Assembly (NCBI GenBank): GCA_963847445.1
Contig: CAWJZV010000014.1
Coordinates: 64,001-128,000 of the forward strand
Length of the DNA: 64,000 bases
DNA from: an uncultured delta proteobacterium
GTDB taxonomy: Bacteria; Desulfobacterota; Binatia; UBA9968
Direction: 5' to 3'
The notes below the pieces were generated by a model. The model saw nothing but the letters and a program-made list of their open reading frames with translations, ran no database searches and was not told where the DNA came from. Shown in pieces: positions 1 to 9,546 of this stretch (position 1 is its first letter; every line of letters begins with the position of its first letter). The position numbers and the translations under genes are program-made.

Positions 1-12
1 GATTTGCCGAAA

Positions 13-986
13 CTACTCCAGCGAAAATTTCGTACCCGACACCCTGCGCCACCGCCCAGCGGTACGCCCAGGCCGCCGCCACGGTATCCCAAATCGCCAT
101 GCCGACCGACTCGAAGACGACGGTCTCGTTATCACCCGCGCGGCCGGGGATTTTTCCCAGGATGACATCGCCCAATTCCCCGGCGATTTTCGCTGCCGAC
201 CAACTGCCATCACCAATCATCGCCATGTAGGGCTGGCGCGGCGCTTCGCCGCCGAGCAACTCTTCTTTCCAAGACACGATGACGCGCGAGTTCGCCACCG
301 TCTGCCGCGGCAGTTGCCCACTGGTGATGGAAACGATCAGCGCGCCCGGTTTGATCCAGCCCGGTTCGATCACTGGCGAGCGCGAACTAGTCGCCAGGCT
401 GACCATCGGTTGGTTTTCCACGGCGCTCTTGGCTGAGTCGACGGCTTCGACATCGATGTTGAGAAAATCGCTCATCGACCTGGCGAACGACTCGCGGTGT
501 TCCTTGGTCGAGCTGAAGACTTTTACCTTTCTTATTCCTGGCAGCGCCCGGGCGATGGCGACGATCTGGCCGCGCGCTTGCCGGCCGCTGCCGATCAGAC
601 CCAAGGTATCGGTGCCTTTGGGCGCCAGATATTTGCCCGCGACACCCGCCGGCGCGCCGGTGCGCCAGACATTCAGACCCGCGTCCGGCGACCAGGGCCA
701 GCAAGTCGCCGCTCTCGCCGTCGAACAGGACGATGAAATAGCCGTCCTTGGCGCCGCGGAACAGCGCGCTGATGCGCATGCCCTGCCCCGCCCCCGGCAC
801 GGCGGAGGTCATGATGCGATATTTTTTCTGGCGGTCGATCAAACTAGTTTCAACCCGCGCTTGTCCGGCGACCTCATTACTATTAAAATCGCCCATTGAG
901 GTTTCGATGAGCGGCAAGAGCGCGTCCATATTCGACGGTTGACAGTACAAAGAAGCTAAGTCTTTCTCGCTCAAGAGCAATGCCAT
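13..986 (-). CDS. Ornithine cyclodeaminase / mu-crystallin family protein (frameshifted)
   Basis: ORF 387..986 N-terminus joins another frame reading WRTGAPAGVA...LGLIGSGRQA...FESVGMAIWD, typical of OCD/mu-crystallin; indels near 680 and near the 3' end. Confidence 0.8.
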
Positions 987-1137
987 TGCTCAATCCTCCA
1001 TTTTGGCTGGCACTATAAAACCGACTGACTTTACCTGAGGAAAACCACGTCCATGCCGCACAATTCCAGCCAATGTGTTAGTATATGATCGATAGTTATC
1101 TCTCAATTCGGGATATCATATCTAGCCAATTTTATTC

Positions 1138-2133
1138 ATGGCGGACATCTATAATACCAAGGCGAAGCTCCTGCGCGGCGTGGTCCAGGATAACGTCGAC
1201 ATCGTCCAGGGGGTCAGAACTAAATATCCCGCCAAGCGCAGGCTACCCTTCCGCTATTGGCTTTCAGCCTGCATCGCCATGCTCGGCATCGCCTATCTGG
1301 CGATCCCCTCACAGGTCGTTTCCACCGCCAACACTTCGGCCAACGAAGCGACCGGCACGGTTTCCGCTGCCAATATCGCGCAAACCCCGGAGTCCGCCGG
1401 GGCGCTAAATTCACCCCGACCGCTAGACAAAAGAGCCGTACCGCTGTCGATCAAGAGAATCATCATCGATCCCGGCCATGGCGGCGAGTCCGGCGCGATC
1501 TCGCAATCGGGCGTCATGGAAAAAGAAATTACCTTGGACGTGGCGCTGCGCCTGCGCCGGCTCATGGGAAATGGCCCCTACGATGTCCTGCTCACGCGTG
1601 AAACCGACCAGTCGGTGCCACTCGACAAGCGGGTGGCCTTCGCCAATGAAAACAAGGGCGATCTGTTCATCTCGATCCACGTGAATTCGCTGGAACCGAA
1701 ATCTCTTCGCGTCCTGGAAACCTACTACGTCGGACCCACCGACGATCCGGCGACCCTCAGGCTGGCAAGCATCGAAAACAAAGACTCAGGCTACTCGCTG
1801 TCGGACTATAAAAAAATTCTGGAAAAAATTTACGTCGACGCACGCCACGATGAATCCAGAACCTTTGCCAAACACATCCAAGCCCAGCTCCATCATTCAC
1901 TTAAACCGGTCAATCCCTGGCTGGAGAACCGCGGCGTCAAGACCGCCCCCTTTGTCGTCCTGATCGGCACCCAGATGCCGGCCATCCTGGTCGAGATCTC
2001 GGCGCTGTCCAACGACGAAGAGGTTAAGTTGTTGACAAAAGAGGATTATCGCGAAAATATCGCCCTTGCCCTGCTCCAGGGCATCAAGAACTACGCGCGC
2101 AATTTCAACCTCCCCGAGAGGAAAGGCAATTAG
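1138..2133 (+). CDS. N-acetylmuramoyl-L-alanine amidase (Amidase_3) with N-terminal membrane anchor
   Basis: IIIDPGHGG, EKEITL, FISIHVNS, MPAILVE zinc-amidase motifs; hydrophobic stretch WLSACIAMLGIAYLAI after a basic N-terminal tail. Confidence 0.92.
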   Translation: MADIYNTKAKLLRGVVQDNVDIVQGVRTKYPAKRRLPFRYWLSACIAMLGIAYLAIPSQVVSTANTSANEATGTVSAANIAQTPESAGALNSPRPLDKRAVPLSIKRIIIDPGHGGESGAISQSGVMEKEITLDVALRLRRLMGNGPYDVLLTRETDQSVPLDKRVAFANENKGDLFISIHVNSLEPKSLRVLETYYVGPTDDPATLRLASIENKDSGYSLSDYKKILEKIYVDARHDESRTFAKHIQAQLHHSLKPVNPWLENRGVKTAPFVVLIGTQMPAILVEISALSNDEEVKLLTKEDYRENIALALLQGIKNYARNFNLPERKGN

Positions 2134-2136
2134 GTC

Positions 2137-3168
2137 ATGGAAGAAAGCAATGAACCCCTCTGCGTCGGCATCGATCTTGGCACATCGCGCAGCTCGATCT
2201 CCGCGTCAAACGGCGAGCGCCATGTGATCGACAGCTACGTCGGTTGGCCGCTGGATATGGTGGCGCGCAAGATCATCAAAAAAAGCATCTTGATCGGCCG
2301 CGAGGCGCTCGATAACCGCTCCATGCTCGACCTGCGCCGTCCGCTCGAACGGGGCATCATGAAGGAAGGCTCGGAGAAAGACCAAGAGGCGGTGCAGGAG
2401 ATCCTCAAACATCTGATCAACCTCGCCGGCATCAAGCAAAAAGGGAAAAACAAATCGAAAGTGCGCGCGGTGGTCGGCGTGCCGGCGGAGGCCTTCCGAG
2501 TGAGCCGGCAAAACCTGCGCAATACCATGGAAGGCATCGCCGACAGCGTCATGCTGGTCTCTGAACCCTTCGCCGTGGCTTACGGCCTGGAAGCGCTGCT
2601 GCATGCCTTGGTGATCGACATCGGCGCCGGCACCGCCGACTTTTGTGTCATGCAGGGGCGTTATCCCACTGAAGACGACCAGCGCACTCTGTCCGCCGCC
2701 GGCGACTCCATCGACGAACAATTGGAAAAACTGGTCCGCGAACACCACCCCGACGCGCAGTTTTCCGTGCACATGATCCGCCAGTGGAAGGAGCAATGGA
2801 GCTTTGTCGGTGAACCTAAAGACCGCGTCCTCGTCACCGCACCGGTCAAAGGCAAAGCCAGCGAACTCGATATCACTCACGAGATGCGCACCGCCTGCGA
2901 AAGCATCCTGCCGCCGATTTGCGAGACCTTGCAGGATATCCTGTCGAAAGTCGAACCTGACTTCCAAGACAAAGTCCGCAACAACGTCATCCTTGCCGGC
3001 GGCAGCTCGCTGATCGCCGGACTCACTGACGCGATCCAGAAATCGCTGATCGAGCTCGGCGGGGGTCGGGCGACGGTCGTCAAAGATCCGGTGTTCGCCG
3101 GTTGCGACGGCGGCTTGGCCATCGCCCGCGATGCTTCGAGCGCCGATTGGGAGAAGCTGTCGCTGTAG
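2137..3168 (+). CDS. MamK-like bacterial actin (MreB/MamK superfamily)
   Basis: GIDLGTS, VSEPFAVAYGL, IDIGAGTAD, DDQRTLSAAG, KEQWSFVG, VILAGGSS, VKDPVFAGC; motif set matches MamK as I recall it rather than MreB. Confidence 0.88.
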   Translation: MEESNEPLCVGIDLGTSRSSISASNGERHVIDSYVGWPLDMVARKIIKKSILIGREALDNRSMLDLRRPLERGIMKEGSEKDQEAVQEILKHLINLAGIKQKGKNKSKVRAVVGVPAEAFRVSRQNLRNTMEGIADSVMLVSEPFAVAYGLEALLHALVIDIGAGTADFCVMQGRYPTEDDQRTLSAAGDSIDEQLEKLVREHHPDAQFSVHMIRQWKEQWSFVGEPKDRVLVTAPVKGKASELDITHEMRTACESILPPICETLQDILSKVEPDFQDKVRNNVILAGGSSLIAGLTDAIQKSLIELGGGRATVVKDPVFAGCDGGLAIARDASSADWEKLSL

Positions 3169-3821
3169 AAATCGTGCACCCCTGGAACGATTACTCATGG
3201 TCAGCCGGTAAACCGGGTCGCTAATATTCGCTAGCGCGGCATCGGGGTTGGCACTCGCACCGATGATCCTCACGACCTCGCTTATCCGCGACAAAAAAAC
3301 CGCCGCACCGAGTCAGACACCGTCCATAGCCGGATCTCCTCTCCGGCATCAAGTAAAGCACGAAAAAGAAAATCTCGACGCAGCCCGCCGCACCGCCGAA
3401 GCGATCAACGGCGCGCACGACCAGTTGCGGCATCTTTTAAGCCGGACGTTGAACGGGCAACCGACGTATAACGTCGTCAGGACTCAAGGCAGGTATCAAC
3501 TCCAATATTTCGCCAATGTTAGCGCTCACTCTCAGATCAAAACAATCCCGATCGATGGACTGGAAAAGCGCAATCATCAACTCGGCTTGTTCAACTGCAG
3601 AGACACCATCCTCTTCGTCCACGACATACTTTACCCCGGTCATGATTCGGCGTTGCCCTCTGCCAAACTTGACCAATAAGTCTCTTGAAACCTCAGTCGA
3701 TTGGTTGTTGCCACTCCATCCGAGGTGGAACATTCTTAGTCAAAGATGTTCTTTAGTGCCGGCGCGACGGCCATTGAATATTTTTCCGACAGCTAAAATT
3801 CGCAGCGGAGGTATTTTACAC

Positions 3822-3890
3822 ATGCGCATGATCGTCATCGGCACCGGCGCCATTGGCGGCATTATCGGCGGCGGGCTGCCCCGTCGGGGA
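3822..3890 (+). pseudogene. Degenerate duplicate of the 5' end of the ketopantoate-reductase-like gene at 8533
   Basis: MRMIVIGTGAIGGIIGGGLPRRG versus MQRMIVIGTGPIGGIIGGRLARAG; GGAGG RBS upstream; about 5 mismatches in the first 59 aligned bp. Confidence 0.85.
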
Positions 3891-4083
3891 CCTTTCGCAA
3901 ACAGACAAGACAAGATTCGGCGCACAGCTATTTTCTCTAGCTCCGTTGGTCTGGCTATAGCCGATGACTTCAAAGAACTTTCGTTGCAAGAAAATTTGTT
4001 CCTGCTATGCGAAATTGACCCGGCTATAGGAATGGCAAACCTTGGCAGGGCCCGGCAATGCCGGGAATTGACCTATAAACTAT

Positions 4084-7000
4084 TTAAATGAAGAGTAGAC
4101 ACTGGCAGGCGTCGGCCTCGAACAACCAAAACTGGTCGAGTACGGTGAACCATAGTCCGCTCAGGCGAGTTTTCAATTTGCCTGCCCAATGCATTAGGTA
4201 GGGTTCTTTGAGGACGCTGCGATGATCGCCGGGGACGACGTGAATTTCCACGCCTCCTTCGGCTAACTGCGACCAACACTGGGATTCTTGACCGCCCTCG
4301 GCGCTCATAACGATATCGAGCCGGCCCGGATGAATGGAAGGTATATATTTCTCGACGGCCCGGCCGTATATCGCCAAGATGTATGAACTCCGAAACGCAA
4401 CCGGGATCTTGTAGCCGAGTTTCAGGCAAGCCTCAATAGTGATCTTTTTCGCAATCTTGACAACTGGCGTCGCAACCGAAGCACAGACGAGTTTTACAAC
4501 GCCAATTAAACGCGTGCGGCAATAATCTAGTTTTTCTGCTGGCGTGCCAAGGCTGCTGAGGCTGCGCAGATGCCGAGACCACCACCGCTGCGGTGACGAT
4601 TCCATGGTTGGTTTAGCAGCTACTGGCACACTTGCGGGAGCCAAGAGAACATTCTTGGGTTGGTCCGGATCCAACATGAAAAGCATGCGTATTTCTTCAC
4701 CTTGTTGGCTGAACTGATGAGCGATTTCGAAAGCCACGAGCGCACCGAAGCAATAACCTCCAAGCAAATAAGGTCCTCGCGGTTGGACCTGGCGAATCTC
4801 GCTGGCGTAATGGCTTGCGATGGTTTCCACCGTGATAAAACGGATTCGCCTCCCGTCTTCGCCCTGGTGTCTTAATCCATATACCGGTTGGTCCGAGCCC
4901 AGATAGCGCGCCAGAACCCCGTCGCTAGCTTCTCCATGGATCCAGAAAAAAGGATCTTTGGAACCATTGGGTTGAAGCGTTACGAGAGATGACCACGGGG
5001 TCGGCGGACCATCTTGGCAGATAAGCTGCGCGAATTGCTCCACAGTAGGCGCCTGGAAAAGGGCAGCAACGGGAAGTTTTTTTCCAAACACTTTCTCGAT
5101 CTGACCAATGAGTTTGACAGCCAACAATGAATGCCCGCCGTGGTCAAAAAAATTGTCACGCACGCCCACCCTCGCCATATTGAGAACGTCAGCCCATAGA
5201 CGGGTCAGTGTGGTTTCAACCGGAGTCCGCGCCGCAACGAAAGCTGCCTGCAGTGCTGCGGCGGGTGTCTCAGGAAGCGGTAGCGCTGCGCGATCTATCT
5301 TGCCGTTCGGTGTTAGGGGAAGCGACGTTAAGAGCGTGATGACTGACGGCACCATGTAGTCGGGTAGTTTTTCTCTGAGGAATGCCCTTAGGCCATCAGT
5401 CGACGAAACTTCAGGTTGCGTCAAGACCACATAGGCAACGAGACGCGTCTCATTGGTTTTATCCTGCCACGCTCGAACCACGCTTTCTCGCACCAAAGAA
5501 TGTTGAGCGAGGACGGCTTCAATCTCCTCCACCTCGATCCTGAAGCCCCGGACCTTGACTTGGGTATCCATGCGCCCCAACAACTCGATATTGCCGTCAG
5601 ACAGATACCGCGCGAGGTCGCCAGTTTTGTAGAGGCGGCCGTGCTCGGCTCCAGCAAACGGATCGTGGATGAATTTATCCGCTGTCAAGGCGGGATTATT
5701 AAGATAACCCCTCGCAACTCCTTCACCACCGATATGCAACTCCCCGGGTATGCCGATGGGAACTGGATTCAGCGCGGAATCAAGTATGTAGACCTTCGTG
5801 TTGGATATCGGGCGACCAATCGGCACCGGTGTCAGCGCCTGGTCTGCCCCGTGAGGCATGGCTTCAAAAATCGTGGTTGTGATTGTGGCTTCGGTGCAAC
5901 CGTAAGCATTGATCAAGCGAACGGCATCACCGACGACTTTGTGCCATACACGGACTTTTTCCGGTGATAATCGATCGCTACCTACCACGACCAGCCGGAG
6001 CGCTCGCGGGATCGCCATCGCGAAATATTCCAACTCGGTAACCCACTGATGCCAGTACGGCGCGGGGATATTGACGACGCTCACCATTTCCCTATCCAGA
6101 AACGCAACGAACTCCGCTATCGACAGCATCCGATTTGGTTTCATGACGAGTACGCCGCCGCCCAACCATGTGGGGAACATCTCTTCAGCCGCTACGTCGA
6201 AGCTCGGCGAAGCGAACTGTAGCACCCGGTCGCTTTCCTTGAGGTCGTAGTGGAAAACCGCGGCTAAGCTGGCATTCACGAGAGCCCGATGTGTAATCAG
6301 AACTCCTTTTGGAGTGCCGGTGGTGCCGGACGTGTAGTTAACGTAAGCGAGGTTATCGCTAGTTTCTTCAACCGGCAGGTTCATCGCACTTTCTGCGGCA
6401 ATCTCTGCCCAGTCGGTGTCAAGACATACCACATTTGTAAAAGACATCGGTGATCGGACGGCAAGGCGATGGGAAGTCAGCAGGACCGGTGCCTTCGTGT
6501 CCTCCAACATAAAACGAATGCGTTCTGTCGGATAAGCGGGGTCCAAGGGTAGGTAAGCACCCCCGGCCTTCAGAATTCCGAGAATTCCCACCATCATTTC
6601 TATAGACCGATCGACGCAAATGCCCACAGGAATGTCCGCTCCAACATGCATGTTTCTAAGGTAGCGAGCGAGTCGATTGGACCTCTCATCGAGGTCTCGA
6701 TAGGTGAGCCGTCCCACTTCGGATACAACCGCGACCGCGTCTGGAGTTAACCGTGCTTGCGCTTCAAAGAGACTGTGAATACATTTCTCGCCGGGATATG
6801 GTTTTGCCGTATTATTCCAATCGATCGCCACTTGATGCCACTCCGCCCGAGGAAGAATGGGCAGCTGCAAAATTCTTTGGTCCGGAGCCGCAACAACGCC
6901 TTCCAAAAGAACTCCGTAATGGGCAAGTAAACGCTCCATCGTGGCAGCTTCAAACAGATCGGTGCTGTACGCCAGTGATTGCTTAAGTCCGTCGGGCTCA

Positions 7001-8343
7001 TCCTGCAGAGTGAGACTCAGATCATAGATGGCAATGTGACTGTTGCCGGATCCTCTCCTCACATCAAGACCGGGGATTTTTAGAGGTTGCGCCGGGATAT
7101 TCTGAAGGGCGAACAGCACTTGGAAAAGCGGTGCCTGGTTTAGATTTCTCTCGGGCTTGATATCTTGCAGCAGCTTCTCAAAAGGAAGGTCATGATGCTC
7201 ATAAGCTCCAAGGGTTAGTTCACGCACGCGTTTAAGCAGCTCCCGAAAGGTAGGATTACCGCCAAGGTCGCTTCTCAGCACTAGCTTGTTATCGAAGCAA
7301 CCGATCAAGTCTTGGATCTCCGCACGATTCCGACCGTTGATGGGGGTACCCACCGCAAAATCCTCTTGTCCTGAATAACGGAACAATAAGGTTTGAAAGG
7401 CCGCCAATAAGGTCACAAATAACGTAACCCCCTCTTGACGGCTGAGCGCTTTCAGCTGGTCCGACAAGGTTTTAGAAAGAAAGGACGATCGCATGGCACC
7501 TTGATAGCTGTGACTTGAGGATCGAGGGTGGTCAGTGGGCAACTGCAAAGTTGGAACTCCGTCAAGTTGCTTCTTCCAGTAGTCGAGTTGCTTGTCGAGG
7601 ATCTTTGGCTGCGGCCACCGATGTTGCCACAAGGCATAATCCGCATATTGAATCGGTAGTTCTGGGAAAGGGCAAGATTCGCCCCTCAAGAAAGCACTAT
7701 ACAGCGCCGCGAACTCGCGCCAAAGAAGTTCGTTGGACCAATCATCGAAAACGATGCGATGTGTTATGACGACCAACGCATGGTCATTTTCAGCTAGTCT
7801 GACCAAGATAGCTCGCAGCATTGAGGCACGAGAAAGGTCGATGGGCTGTTCCGACAACCTAACGATTAAGCGTTGCAGTTCTCCTTCTTGCGCTTCTCGC
7901 GTAGATTCCCCAAGTTCTATGATTTTGAGATCTACGGATGGCTTTCCATTGATCAGCTGTACGGGACTTCCCTCATCCGTTGTCCCGAAATTGGTTCGAA
8001 GGATCTCGTGTCGCTCGACTAAAGCAACGAGCGCCGACTTCACTAATTCTCGATCAACATCGCCATGCAGGCGAATGAACGTCGGTTCTTCGTAAGCTGG
8101 ACAATCGGGTTCCAGCTGGTTCAAAAACCACAGTCGTTGCTGAGCAAACGAAAGTGGCGCCGAACGGCGGTCTTGCCGCCGTTGAATTCTCTGATGATTG
8201 GGGTCGGCATAGCCTGCCTCTCCAACCTGAAGATCGAGCGGCGCTTGCTCGTGGGGTGCAGCTCTAGTGAGCCAATCGCGAAAATTATCCATAAGCGACC
8301 AGAGGAAACTTTTGCTTGAATGCTGCGAGCATTTTATTTTCAC
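4084..8343 (-). CDS. Single-module non-ribosomal peptide synthetase (C-A-T-TE)
   Basis: PLSFAQQRLWFL (C), YTSGTTGTPKG / NAYGCTE / LYKTGDL / PNGKIDR (A), FFDHGGHSLL (T), GGYCFG (TE); visibly more AT-rich than neighbours; true start may be MDNFRDW. Confidence 0.95.
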   Translation of the reverse strand: MKIKCSQHSSKSFLWSLMDNFRDWLTRAAPHEQAPLDLQVGEAGYADPNHQRIQRRQDRRSAPLSFAQQRLWFLNQLEPDCPAYEEPTFIRLHGDVDRELVKSALVALVERHEILRTNFGTTDEGSPVQLINGKPSVDLKIIELGESTREAQEGELQRLIVRLSEQPIDLSRASMLRAILVRLAENDHALVVITHRIVFDDWSNELLWREFAALYSAFLRGESCPFPELPIQYADYALWQHRWPQPKILDKQLDYWKKQLDGVPTLQLPTDHPRSSSHSYQGAMRSSFLSKTLSDQLKALSRQEGVTLFVTLLAAFQTLLFRYSGQEDFAVGTPINGRNRAEIQDLIGCFDNKLVLRSDLGGNPTFRELLKRVRELTLGAYEHHDLPFEKLLQDIKPERNLNQAPLFQVLFALQNIPAQPLKIPGLDVRRGSGNSHIAIYDLSLTLQDEPDGLKQSLAYSTDLFEAATMERLLAHYGVLLEGVVAAPDQRILQLPILPRAEWHQVAIDWNNTAKPYPGEKCIHSLFEAQARLTPDAVAVVSEVGRLTYRDLDERSNRLARYLRNMHVGADIPVGICVDRSIEMMVGILGILKAGGAYLPLDPAYPTERIRFMLEDTKAPVLLTSHRLAVRSPMSFTNVVCLDTDWAEIAAESAMNLPVEETSDNLAYVNYTSGTTGTPKGVLITHRALVNASLAAVFHYDLKESDRVLQFASPSFDVAAEEMFPTWLGGGVLVMKPNRMLSIAEFVAFLDREMVSVVNIPAPYWHQWVTELEYFAMAIPRALRLVVVGSDRLSPEKVRVWHKVVGDAVRLINAYGCTEATITTTIFEAMPHGADQALTPVPIGRPISNTKVYILDSALNPVPIGIPGELHIGGEGVARGYLNNPALTADKFIHDPFAGAEHGRLYKTGDLARYLSDGNIELLGRMDTQVKVRGFRIEVEEIEAVLAQHSLVRESVVRAWQDKTNETRLVAYVVLTQPEVSSTDGLRAFLREKLPDYMVPSVITLLTSLPLTPNGKIDRAALPLPETPAAALQAAFVAARTPVETTLTRLWADVLNMARVGVRDNFFDHGGHSLLAVKLIGQIEKVFGKKLPVAALFQAPTVEQFAQLICQDGPPTPWSSLVTLQPNGSKDPFFWIHGEASDGVLARYLGSDQPVYGLRHQGEDGRRIRFITVETIASHYASEIRQVQPRGPYLLGGYCFGALVAFEIAHQFSQQGEEIRMLFMLDPDQPKNVLLAPASVPVAAKPTMESSPQRWWSRHLRSLSSLGTPAEKLDYCRTRLIGVVKLVCASVATPVVKIAKKITIEACLKLGYKIPVAFRSSYILAIYGRAVEKYIPSIHPGRLDIVMSAEGGQESQCWSQLAEGGVEIHVVPGDHRSVLKEPYLMHWAGKLKTRLSGLWFTVLDQFWLFEADACQCLLFI

Positions 8344-8532
8344 CAGTTCATCGAGTCAATAAATTTACTGCTCTTCATTCGCGCAATCTGCGGTTACGGT
8401 ACAACTAACCTCGTTGTCATCTGTGATCGGCACAGTCGAACTCGATCGTAAGTCATTTCTACAAGATTGACCGGTCGCGCATTTTTGCGTACTTATTGGC
8501 ATTTAAGAGTCGAAACTAGAGGAGAAACCACC

Positions 8533-9546
8533 ATGCAGCGCATGATCGTTATCGGCACCGGCCCCATTGGCGGCATCATCGGCGGCAGGCTGGCCCGCGC
8601 CGGCGCGGATATCACTTTCGTCGACATCGACCAGGAACATGTCAGCGCGATTCGTGAGAAAGGGCTGTATGTCGACGTCCCCGACGGCCCGTTCAACGTG
8701 AAGGCCAAAATCCTTTATCCCAACGAGCTTCATGAGATTGGCGGCAAGTTCGACATCGGCTTTATCGCCGTGCGATCGAACTATACGGCCGACGCTTTGA
8801 ACACCGTGTTGCCCCATCTCGCGCCCGACGGCCTGCTGGTGTCGATGCAAAACGGCATCAATCCGCCGCTGCTGCAAGAAAAAGTCGGCGCCGACCGCAC
8901 CCTCGGCATGGCGATCCGCATGGGCTGCCGCAAAATCGGCCCCGGCCATGTCCAGACCGACATCCGTGGCCACCTATACCTCGGCCACCTGCACGGCAAA
9001 ATCACGCCACGCTTGGAAGAGCTGCACAAGACCCTCAACGCAGTCATGGAAACGGATATCTCCGACAACATCCTTGGCGTGCTCTGGAGCAAGCTCACCT
9101 ACACCTGTCTCGGGTATTATGGCTCGCTAGCCGACGCGTCCTTGGCGACAACTTGCACGACCGAAGCCGACCGCCGCGCCCTGGCCGACTTCTTCGCCGA
9201 AATCGTCGCCGTCGGCGAAGCACTGGGCGTACACTGGATCAAGTTGGCGGAATACAACCCGGCCGACTTTCACCCAAGAAACTCCGCCGACAAACGGCTT
9301 GCCGCCGTCAACGACTTCGCAAAAACTTGGAAACCCGAAGACCGTAAAGGGCCGCTGCGCTACGTTCAGAAAAAGATCAGAACCGAAGTCGACTTCACGC
9401 TTGCCTATGTCGTTAGAGAAGGTGAAAAGCTGGGGATGAAGATGCCGCTGTGCAGTAAATTACTGGAGATATTTCGCGAGTTGGAAGCGGGCAAGAGGCA
9501 ATTTGGGCAGCAGAACTATGATGAGCTGGTGGCAACGGGGAGATAA
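8533..9546 (+). CDS. Ketopantoate reductase (ApbA/PanE) family protein
   Basis: IGTGPIGGIIG Rossmann motif, VSMQNG, LWSKL, RTEVD; GGAG RBS. Confidence 0.88.
   Translation: MQRMIVIGTGPIGGIIGGRLARAGADITFVDIDQEHVSAIREKGLYVDVPDGPFNVKAKILYPNELHEIGGKFDIGFIAVRSNYTADALNTVLPHLAPDGLLVSMQNGINPPLLQEKVGADRTLGMAIRMGCRKIGPGHVQTDIRGHLYLGHLHGKITPRLEELHKTLNAVMETDISDNILGVLWSKLTYTCLGYYGSLADASLATTCTTEADRRALADFFAEIVAVGEALGVHWIKLAEYNPADFHPRNSADKRLAAVNDFAKTWKPEDRKGPLRYVQKKIRTEVDFTLAYVVREGEKLGMKMPLCSKLLEIFRELEAGKRQFGQQNYDELVATGR

Follow-up and report, generated by a model that had tools for sequence, protein, structure and literature searches.

An actin-like gene of the MamK family and, directly upstream of it, a gene for a membrane-anchored cell-wall amidase form a two-gene unit in the genome of an uncultured delta proteobacterium (GTDB lineage Desulfobacterota; Binatia; UBA9968). 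The unit lies in the 64,000-nucleotide (nt) stretch analyzed here, hereafter the window, which is C14:64001-128000 of a 7.19-Mb assembly in 48 contigs (91.8% complete, 6.9% contamination). We judge it fairly likely that the amidase and actin genes form an operon that provides a cell-wall hydrolase guided by the cytoskeleton. The explanation that we favor, with moderate confidence, is that a MamK-type filament positions a bitopic amidase of the AmiA/B/C type via the enzyme's cytoplasmic helix, in a role unrelated to magnetosomes. The original prediction had proposed that a filament could position the amidase through its cytoplasmic tail; conservation of the gene pair, a conserved motif in the tail and a model of the complex lend that proposal computational support.

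Organization and conservation of the gene pair

The unit comprises the following features (aa, amino acids).

1138..2133, forward strand: amidase gene, 331 aa; bitopic N-acetylmuramoyl-L-alanine amidase of the AmiA/B/C type (open reading frame with a Pfam Amidase_3 match)
2116..2126, forward strand: Shine-Dalgarno-like purine-rich GAGAGGAAAGG, read from the sequence, within the 3' end of the amidase gene and 10 nt before the actin ATG
2137..3168, forward strand: actin gene, 343 aa; MamK-family actin-like ATPase, member of a distinct amidase-linked clade

The prediction of a 343-aa actin starting 3 bp past the amidase stop was accurate; both open reading frames (ORFs) are in place, with the amidase stop TAG at 2131-2133, a GTC spacer at 2134-2136 and the actin ATG at 2137. 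The distances from amidase stop to actin start in 79 related loci clustered at 3, 1 and -4 nt. A consensus scan for promoters and terminators between window positions 800 and 4200 found sites no more frequently than in shuffled sequence.

Relatives of the actin were sought in one genome per GTDB species, which yielded 174, and neighborhoods were taken from the best 80 of the 174 loci. These 80 came from Syntrophobacter-like metagenome-assembled genomes of the Thermodesulfobacteriota, with actins 78-99% identical to that of the window, and from Acidobacteriota (Thermoanaerobaculia and Holophagales), with 62-69% identity. By tblastn, 79 of the 80 loci encoded an amidase immediately before the actin and in the same orientation; the single exception had only 85 nt of upstream sequence. 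The pair is thus conserved across genomes of two phyla, an outcome that passes one of the checks named with the original prediction. It was also present in 19/19 loci of the same genus, genomes that overlap with the 80-locus set and are therefore not independent of it. Two Thermodesulfobacteriota genomes of other families (G334 and G066) likewise encoded an Amidase_3 protein directly upstream of actins 50-52% identical to that of the window. Clustering of the ORFs across the 80 loci revealed no universal neighbor besides the pair itself.

Within the window's genus, 20/24 genomes carried the actin, whereas none of the 16 genomes searched in two further families of its order had it. Among Acidobacteriota genomes drawn evenly, 30 of 401 (approximately 7%) were carriers. 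One unpublished genome (G005; L021) counts as a single unit in the genus figures given here, and none of our conclusions hinges on it. Among 8,000 scored candidates from a large protein collection, at least 6,373 clusters (at 90% identity) reached an E value of 1e-10 or better. All of the named close relatives among the 120 listed were labeled by their sources only as "rod shape-determining protein MreB."

Family and phylogenetic placement of the actin

The actin scored 381 bits against the NCBIfam model for MamK (NF040964), a full-length match (model positions 1-330 of 335) that nevertheless falls 19 bits under the NCBI cut-off of 400. The distant amidase-linked actins of G334 and G066 exceeded that cut-off, at 424 and 442 bits. 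Scores were 217 bits for BeeR (NF053558; cut-off 530), 22 bits for FtsA, and 71.8, 57.8 and 54.7 bits for 3 MreB models (cut-offs 293, 366 and 515), none of which was passed. Pfam returned only the generic families MreB_Mbl, which was best, and Actin, together with a weak Alp7A_like_C match. Among PDB entries, the best 3 matches were all MamK (5ljw, 8.5e-77), followed by 8r2n (5.8e-41) and then by MreB (7e-15). The MamK-like motifs named in the original prediction do align with 5ljw (VSEPFAVAYGL with VSEPFMVGYGL, KEQWSFVG with KEQFSFVG, VKDPVFAGC with VKDPTFDGC, and the terminal W..L). The actin fold starts at residue 8. Residues D13, G15, T16, E143, D161, G163-T166 and G288-G289 were invariant among 59 actin sequences; we take them to be the phosphate-1, phosphate-2 and adenosine motifs and the catalytic Glu.

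The trees combined the amidase-linked actins, MamK-family genes from Thermodesulfobacteriota (3 magnetotactic and 6 non-magnetotactic genomes), and those of 150 listed representatives at 50% identity that were full-length; the outgroup was the MreB of the window's own genome. In the careful tree (49 rows, LG+C20+F+G4 with posterior mean site frequencies), whose bootstrap was not fully settled, all amidase-linked actins formed one clade (support 99/92) that also contained 2 representatives of unknown context. This clade fell within a non-BeeR MamK group (support 98/99), and the BeeR representatives, which scored 562 bits on the BeeR model, were basal. The magnetotactic MamKs, to which the window actin was 34-41% identical in our sample, lay in at least 2 lineages other than the amidase-linked clade. 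Support for the order among the MamK lineages was just 46/51, and we therefore make no firm statement on which lineage came first. BeeR appeared as the sister of the amidase-linked clade in a quick LG+G4 tree (Shimodaira-Hasegawa-like approximate likelihood ratio test, 91); this placement was lost under the site-heterogeneous model and we treat it as a long-branch effect.

Judged by its sequence, the window actin is a member of the MamK family, broadly defined, and represents a distinct subfamily. Phylogeny, which had been named as a check on the MamK-like assignment, agrees, the actin branching with neither MreB nor plasmid actins. It is scarcely credible that the gene is, as public annotation would have it, a paralogue of MreB with an ordinary role in rod shape. 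The labels of its close relatives and the best Pfam family speak for such a role, but the MreB models reached only 55-72 bits against 381 for MamK, the PDB matches differed in the same direction, and MreB was a long outgroup in both the quick and the careful tree. The genome moreover has, in addition to its single MamK-type actin gene, a separate MreB-like gene on contig C9.

Search for magnetosome genes

The NCBI models for Mam proteins were located by trying accession numbers around NF040964, and 5 were used (MamI, MamP, MamQ, MamB and MamM; MamA and MamE were not among them). The window's genome had no MamI match, and its best scores for the others were all under cut-off, namely MamP 29 bits (300), MamQ 83 (250), MamM 62 (350) and MamB 59 (350). 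As positive controls, 3 magnetotactic genomes of the same phylum each had MamK beside MamB-like genes (237-250 bits) on one contig, and one of them (G358) also had MamI and MamQ matches on its MamK contig. The MamI model gave 77-78 bits in all 3 of these genomes. Among 31 genomes of the window's genus it matched once and marginally (22 bits), and among 17 further genomes that carry the pair it matched once, at 28.7 bits and on a contig other than that of the pair. MamQ was dropped as a discriminator because it scored 80-119 bits in magnetotactic and non-magnetotactic genomes alike. The claim that the pair stands outside any magnetosome cluster, made from the window, accordingly extends to the assembled genome for these 5 proteins.

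A leftover or detached magnetosome gene, with the cluster in the unassembled part of the genome and the organism magnetotactic now or recently, is very improbable. The incompleteness and contamination of the assembly leave some room for it, and the MamK score is near the cut-off. The MamI and MamB scores, however, fall far short of those in magnetotactic genomes, the clade is separate from the sampled magnetotactic MamKs, and approximately 7% of the sampled Acidobacteriota carry the actin.

MamK-family genes over the NCBI cut-off occurred in 15 of 401 genomes, and Mam genes could be tied to only 3 of these; such genes are not rare in non-magnetotactic Thermodesulfobacteriota.

Architecture of the amidase

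The 331-aa amidase was divided into 4 parts from its ORF, hydropathy, column entropy and an AlphaFold2 (AF2) model with its predicted local distance difference test (pLDDT) values.

1138..1257, forward strand: cytoplasmic N-terminal tail, residues 1-40; amphipathic helix 2-23, then a basic stretch (AF2)
1258..1311, forward strand: single transmembrane (TM) helix, approximately residues 41-58, N-in; hydropathy peak at approximately 40-58, AF2 helix 40-54, Arg/Lys-rich N-terminal side
1312..1452, forward strand: disordered, poorly conserved periplasmic linker, residues 59-105; pLDDT below 50 for residues 56-85, entropy 2.39 bits
1453..2103, forward strand: periplasmic Amidase_3 catalytic domain with a regulatory insert of the AmiA/B/C type (approximately residues 200-260); pLDDT above 90 over most of 110-320

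The positive-inside rule would give the N-in orientation, as would the requirement that the catalytic domain be periplasmic. Pfam found Amidase_3 (PF01520) alone, at residues 108-318 (158 bits, gathering threshold 27; 3e-46), and its scan found no AMIN domain. An amidase with no obvious AMIN domain and with a tail before one TM helix had been described from the letters, and that description holds. The AF2 model showed disorder at 56-105 and a catalytic domain at 107-322, and the latter was the best conserved part of the protein, with a mean column entropy of 1.24 bits.

The enzyme aligned end to end, insert included, with AmiA (8c2o) and AmiC (4bin) of E. coli and AmiB (3ne8) of Bartonella, and with CwlV, LytH and CwlD only through the flanks of the insert. 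AmiA was the best Foldseek match (4e-19). None of the equivalog models was passed (AmiA 108 bits against 400, AmiC 93 against 700, AmiB 69 against 532). The best NCBIfam score was that of a CwlD-type model (120 bits, cut-off 221); this match was split in two because CwlD has no AmiA/B/C-type insert. Residues H114, E128, H181 and E286 were invariant among 58 amidase sequences, as were E213 and N214 of the insert. We assume the first 4 to be the metal ligands and the catalytic Glu, and the insert Glu to be presumably that of the self-blocking helix displaced by LytM-type activators. If these roles are right, the amidase would be active but regulated.

Elsewhere in the same genome, a conventional amidase with an AMIN-like N-terminus is encoded beside mutS. 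This gene (L131, G000:C30:377363-381001) occupies 2 overlapping frames on the reverse strand (ORFs 2058-2867 and 1465-2079) and has a signal-like as well as AMIN-like N-terminus; the split stems either from a frameshifted gene or from an indel in the assembly. Four acidobacterial carriers of the pair had 3 Amidase_3 genes each.

A conserved motif in the amidase tail

The cytoplasmic tail carries the motif K..LLR..V.(D/E)NV(D/E)...G. In an alignment whose rows were picked by this motif, N19 was invariant and K8, L12 and G25 were kept at 86-88%, and the unbiased figure is therefore the count made without selection. By that count, the strict pattern was matched 90-140 residues before DPGHGG in 66 of 72 assessable loci; 4 others had the motif with one substitution as judged by eye, 2 had frameshifted tails, and a further 7 of the 79 loci could not be assessed since a contig end cut the N-terminus. 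Shuffled upstream segments matched in 201 of 14,400 trials (1.4%). The motif was also present in the amidases of G334 and G066, with Tyr replacing Val16. A profile of the tail searched against all 6 frames of the window's genome retrieved the amidase only (E 1e-12; next best 1.5). In the motif-selected alignment the entropy of the tail helix was 1.53 bits, compared with 2.1-2.5 bits for the basic stretch, the TM helix and the linker.

Predicted contact between tail and actin

To model the complex, residues 1-42 of the amidase alignment were folded with the alignment of the actin. Three runs scored 0.84-0.85, and the best of 3 controls reached 0.03, with the actin swapped for an unrelated protein. 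In calibration, the mark was reached by 58/80 solved complexes and 2/110 mismatched pairs, figures that hold roughly here because custom alignments were used. The runs shared at least 70% of their contacts, with partner pLDDT of at least 63. Tail residues 4-25 were predicted to contact actin residues 121-128, 138-141, 149-155, 174-176 and 329-341, a site that by alignment to the actin fold would be the cleft between subdomains IA and IIA.

Several interface residues of the actin differ between the clade and the rest of the family. The clade-specific R121, R128 and R175 mostly give way to hydrophobic residues or Thr/Ser in the other MamK-family members, in which L/M/I/V take the place of A333 and Y/F that of D337. 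Changes on the 2 sides also occurred together in 2 lineages. Three loci (L044, L047 and L048) paired actin Q121/L125 with T18 in the tail, and G334 and G066 paired actin M333/Y337 with the Tyr at tail position 16 (V16 in the window). A charge pair between actin E/D152 and tail K/R8 was kept in 58/58 pairs. Together with conservation of the motif, the control-passing model backs the proposed contact, and direct binding of the tail to the actin is supported at the level of prediction.

Proposed mechanism and alternatives

AmiA/B/C-type zinc amidases cut the peptide stems off the glycan strands of peptidoglycan. In the mechanism that we propose, the amidase would be held in the inner membrane by its one N-in TM helix, with no targeting by a signal peptide or AMIN domain, and its catalytic domain would hang on a flexible periplasmic tether of approximately 50 residues. 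The actin would be a cytoplasmic ATPase that presumably polymerizes there; no membrane-binding element is evident in it. The conserved N-terminal helix of the amidase (approximately 25 residues) would dock in the IA/IIA cleft of the actin, such that the filament could set where the amidase sits or moves along the membrane, and hence the site of wall cutting, and the tail would in return tie the filament to the membrane. The likeliest site would be the division septum or other local wall remodeling.

Several points weigh against this mechanism. A conventional AMIN-type amidase is present in the genome, and the actin-linked enzyme would therefore be an accessory or extra paralogue. The cellular site named above is a guess, and no link of the pair to dcw or fts genes was seen. 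In the AF2 monomer, the tail had a pLDDT of only approximately 50-56. The complex score is the model's own confidence; other actin folds are known to take up helices in the IA/IIA cleft (ParR on ParM, WH2 on actin), and likeness to these may account for part of the pass. Since the same cleft takes part in longitudinal filament contacts in actins, tail binding might be limited to monomers or filament ends, which would alter the mechanism. The covariation cases amount to 2 single events, and no clear enrichment of clade-specific residues was found at the interface, where the clade residue was shared by other MamK-family members at a level of 0.58 (6 positions) compared with 0.68 elsewhere. Finally, contigs from RNA libraries that cover the junction (described below) prove neither transcription nor a single transcript.

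One alternative is that the genes are co-transcribed and serve one process without contact between their products, the tail binding FtsA, FtsZ, a regulator or the membrane surface instead. The tail is amphipathic, the binding is a prediction of the model, and the interface has no overall clade-specific enrichment, all of which would suit such an arrangement. We nevertheless consider it unlikely, given the complex score of 0.85 against 0.03 with an unrelated protein in the actin's place, the paired changes in 2 lineages, the charge pair kept throughout, and adjacency that is strict over 50% divergence of the actin.

Another alternative reverses the roles, with the amidase acting mainly as a membrane anchor or nucleator for a filament whose real job is elsewhere (pole, inclusion or chromosome) and wall cutting being secondary. 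The lack of a membrane-binding element in the actin and the uniqueness of the tail motif in the genome would fit this arrangement, as would non-magnetotactic MamK-family loci in 2 genomes (G171 and G260) that pair the actin with coiled-coil or TM-coil proteins rather than an enzyme, and the small TM-coil protein gene downstream of the actin in 12 relatives. Conversely, conservation within the amidase is highest in the catalytic residues and domain, which argues that enzyme activity is what selection keeps; the SPOR protein at 16 loci points to peptidoglycan; and ORF clustering over the 80 loci showed no conserved cargo genes nearby. We regard the anchor role as quite unlikely, and retain positioning of the amidase by the filament as the favored mechanism.

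A broader version of that mechanism is possible but doubtful. The pair would be a widespread, unnamed machine in which a MamK-type filament holds the amidase tail through the cleft in which ParM receives ParR, perhaps with the tail tracking filament ends; in some lineages a SPOR protein would read the cut wall, and the cell would steer local hydrolysis from within, with no need of AMIN targeting. On that view, the MamK family would have begun or diversified as a cell-wall cytoskeleton, with recruitment to magnetosomes in some lineages only.

Neighboring genes and expression

In 16 acidobacterial loci, a third gene followed, its start overlapping the actin stop as ATGA. Its product has a conserved N-terminal portion of approximately 75 residues and a Pro-rich portion of 200-300, and a TM helix was predicted for 12 of these 16 products; the one product scanned with Pfam (L070) has a SPOR domain at its C-terminus. 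This layout would resemble that of FtsN or DamX. SPOR domains bind the denuded glycans that amidases produce.

Genes for cyclic di-GMP signaling (GGDEF and PilZ) adjoin the pair in some lineages. The amidase is closely preceded by a PilZ-domain gene (in L049, 3472-4881, forward strand) at 24 acidobacterial loci, and a GGDEF protein gene lies beside the actin in G334 (L128, G334:C184, 7726-9066, forward strand).

In 12 Syntrophobacter-like loci, the actin is followed by a gene for a protein of 102-141 aa with an N-terminal TM helix and a charged coil; the intact genes begin 5-191 nt downstream of the actin (within L025-L039). The window retains a decayed form.

3238..3457, forward strand: decayed TM-coil gene remnant in 2 frames; tblastn, E 2.7e-6 for 3356-3457 and only E 0.64 for 3238-3336

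Nucleotide synteny with the closest relative (L024, 95% identity over window positions 1-3454) stops at 3454. Because the sequence of L024 is unrelated from there on, the region right after the actin operon is a rearrangement breakpoint; beyond it L024 has an NMT1-like binding-protein gene. Farther downstream in the window is a gene for a single-module nonribosomal peptide synthetase (4084-8343, reverse strand, 1419 aa; Condensation, AMP-binding, PP-binding and Thioesterase domains). It is flanked by a short ORF (3516-4091) and a full gene (8467-9546), both on the forward strand. The two have the dinucleotide-binding motif MIVIGTG.IGGIIGG in common at the N-terminus, and the first may have arisen as a truncated copy of the second.

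Near-identical DNA was present in biofilter, soil and sediment metagenomes of several studies. Among RNA libraries, just 6-10% of the sampled words were present in 6. Short contigs with 88-99% likeness lay over parts of both genes in 4, and their depth and gaps cannot be interpreted. The junction was bridged by one contig in each of 2 RNA studies (X16, 2053-2203; X18, 2082-2264), a weak hint compatible with co-transcription.

Other MamK-family genes

Fusion of amidase to actin, considered as independent support for their link, was rejected, as none of 10 long MamK-family representatives (523-1232 aa) had an amidase domain. Open frames of 666-726 aa at some acidobacterial matches were likewise rejected as fusions because the 2 genes of one such locus (L057) occupy different frames. 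Nine long MamK-family proteins (P0137, P0138, P0139, P0143, P0144, P0147, P0160, P0169 and P0197) have the actin at the C-terminus, preceded by 190-900 residues with no Pfam match; these proteins form a tight clade in the quick tree. In P0187 (768 aa), a complete FtsZ (Tubulin and FtsZ_C) is fused to a MamK-family actin.

Tandem MamK-family genes over the NCBI cut-off were found in 2 non-magnetotactic Thermodesulfobacteriota (L125, G260:C12:26000-45999, and L126 in G318). Between those of G260 lies a gene whose 160-aa product has a TM helix and a coiled coil; genes for Mla lipid transport and radical-SAM proteins flank the tandem. With these neighbors, the locus was rejected as a magnetosome cluster and may be another non-magnetosome MamK system. 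In a further genus (g36; L127, G171:C3), a MamK-family actin was present in 6/6 searched genomes of approximately 2.7 Mb, preceded by genes for 2 coiled-coil proteins of 117 and 663 aa with no Pfam match.

Comparison with known systems

Among bacterial actins, MreB serves wall synthesis, FtsA division, ParM plasmids and MamK magnetosomes. By analogy with such systems, the pair described here would be of the kind in which an actin works with a membrane adaptor, and it appears to be widespread and unnamed. No report joining MamK-like actins to amidases was found in the literature searched, subscription journals and supplements not being covered, and neither was a description of a filament wired straight to a wall-cutting enzyme through the enzyme's own cytoplasmic tail. 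The prediction is a sharp one, involving a 25-residue peptide with one invariant Asn and 3 clade-specific Arg of the actin. It also bears on surveys of magnetotactic bacteria for which mamK has been used as a marker, as described in bioRxiv 10.1101/682252; soil metagenomes are full of MamK-family genes unrelated to magnetosomes, and such surveys would be affected.

Compared with AmiA, AmiB and AmiC, the amidase has the same type of catalytic domain with a regulatory insert, but differs in its conserved N-terminal helix and TM anchor and in having no AMIN domain. Sporulation amidases of the CwlD type have an N-terminal membrane anchor and gave the amidase its best NCBIfam score; they differ in having no insert of the AmiA/B/C type. 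An actin homologue that governs where a hydrolase acts is known from Bacillus subtilis, in which MreBH governs the wall hydrolase LytE. That system differs in its actin family and in its enzyme, a secreted endopeptidase, and has no conserved gene pair or tail motif.

ParM and ParR offer a likeness in concept. ParR binds ParM in the IA/IIA cleft, and here, too, a short helix of the partner is predicted to lie in that cleft of the actin-like protein. The partner differs in being a membrane-anchored periplasmic enzyme encoded on the chromosome, whereas ParR is a DNA-binding adaptor.

Within the actin's own family, solved MamK (5ljw, 5jyg and 5ljv) is the closest in family and structure, of equal length and also with no N-terminal extension. 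The window actin differs from magnetotactic MamK in having no magnetosome cluster, in its separate clade and in its amidase partner. BeeR, a three-stranded tubular actin of Verrucomicrobiota (8r2n) whose hallmark is a disordered N-terminal domain according to excerpts of its report (PMC11929497), was the only described non-magnetotactic MamK relative found within the same scope of literature. As far as those excerpts go, BeeR is similar in being a MamK relative of non-magnetotactic, largely soil bacteria, and it is the second-best NCBIfam and PDB family for the window actin. The window actin differs in falling far under the BeeR cut-off and in having no disordered N-terminal domain; BeeR branches outside the group that holds the amidase-linked clade, and the excerpts mention no partner gene.

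A parallel in design is that of FtsA and FtsN, an actin-fold protein that binds the cytoplasmic N-terminus of a bitopic protein of septal peptidoglycan, as described in PMC7613929. The third gene of the 16 acidobacterial loci shares in the likeness; its product would be FtsN/DamX-like, with a cytoplasmic N-terminus, one TM helix and, in L070, a C-terminal SPOR domain. The system described here differs in that its actin is of the MamK family rather than FtsA and that the amidase itself bears the cytoplasmic tail.

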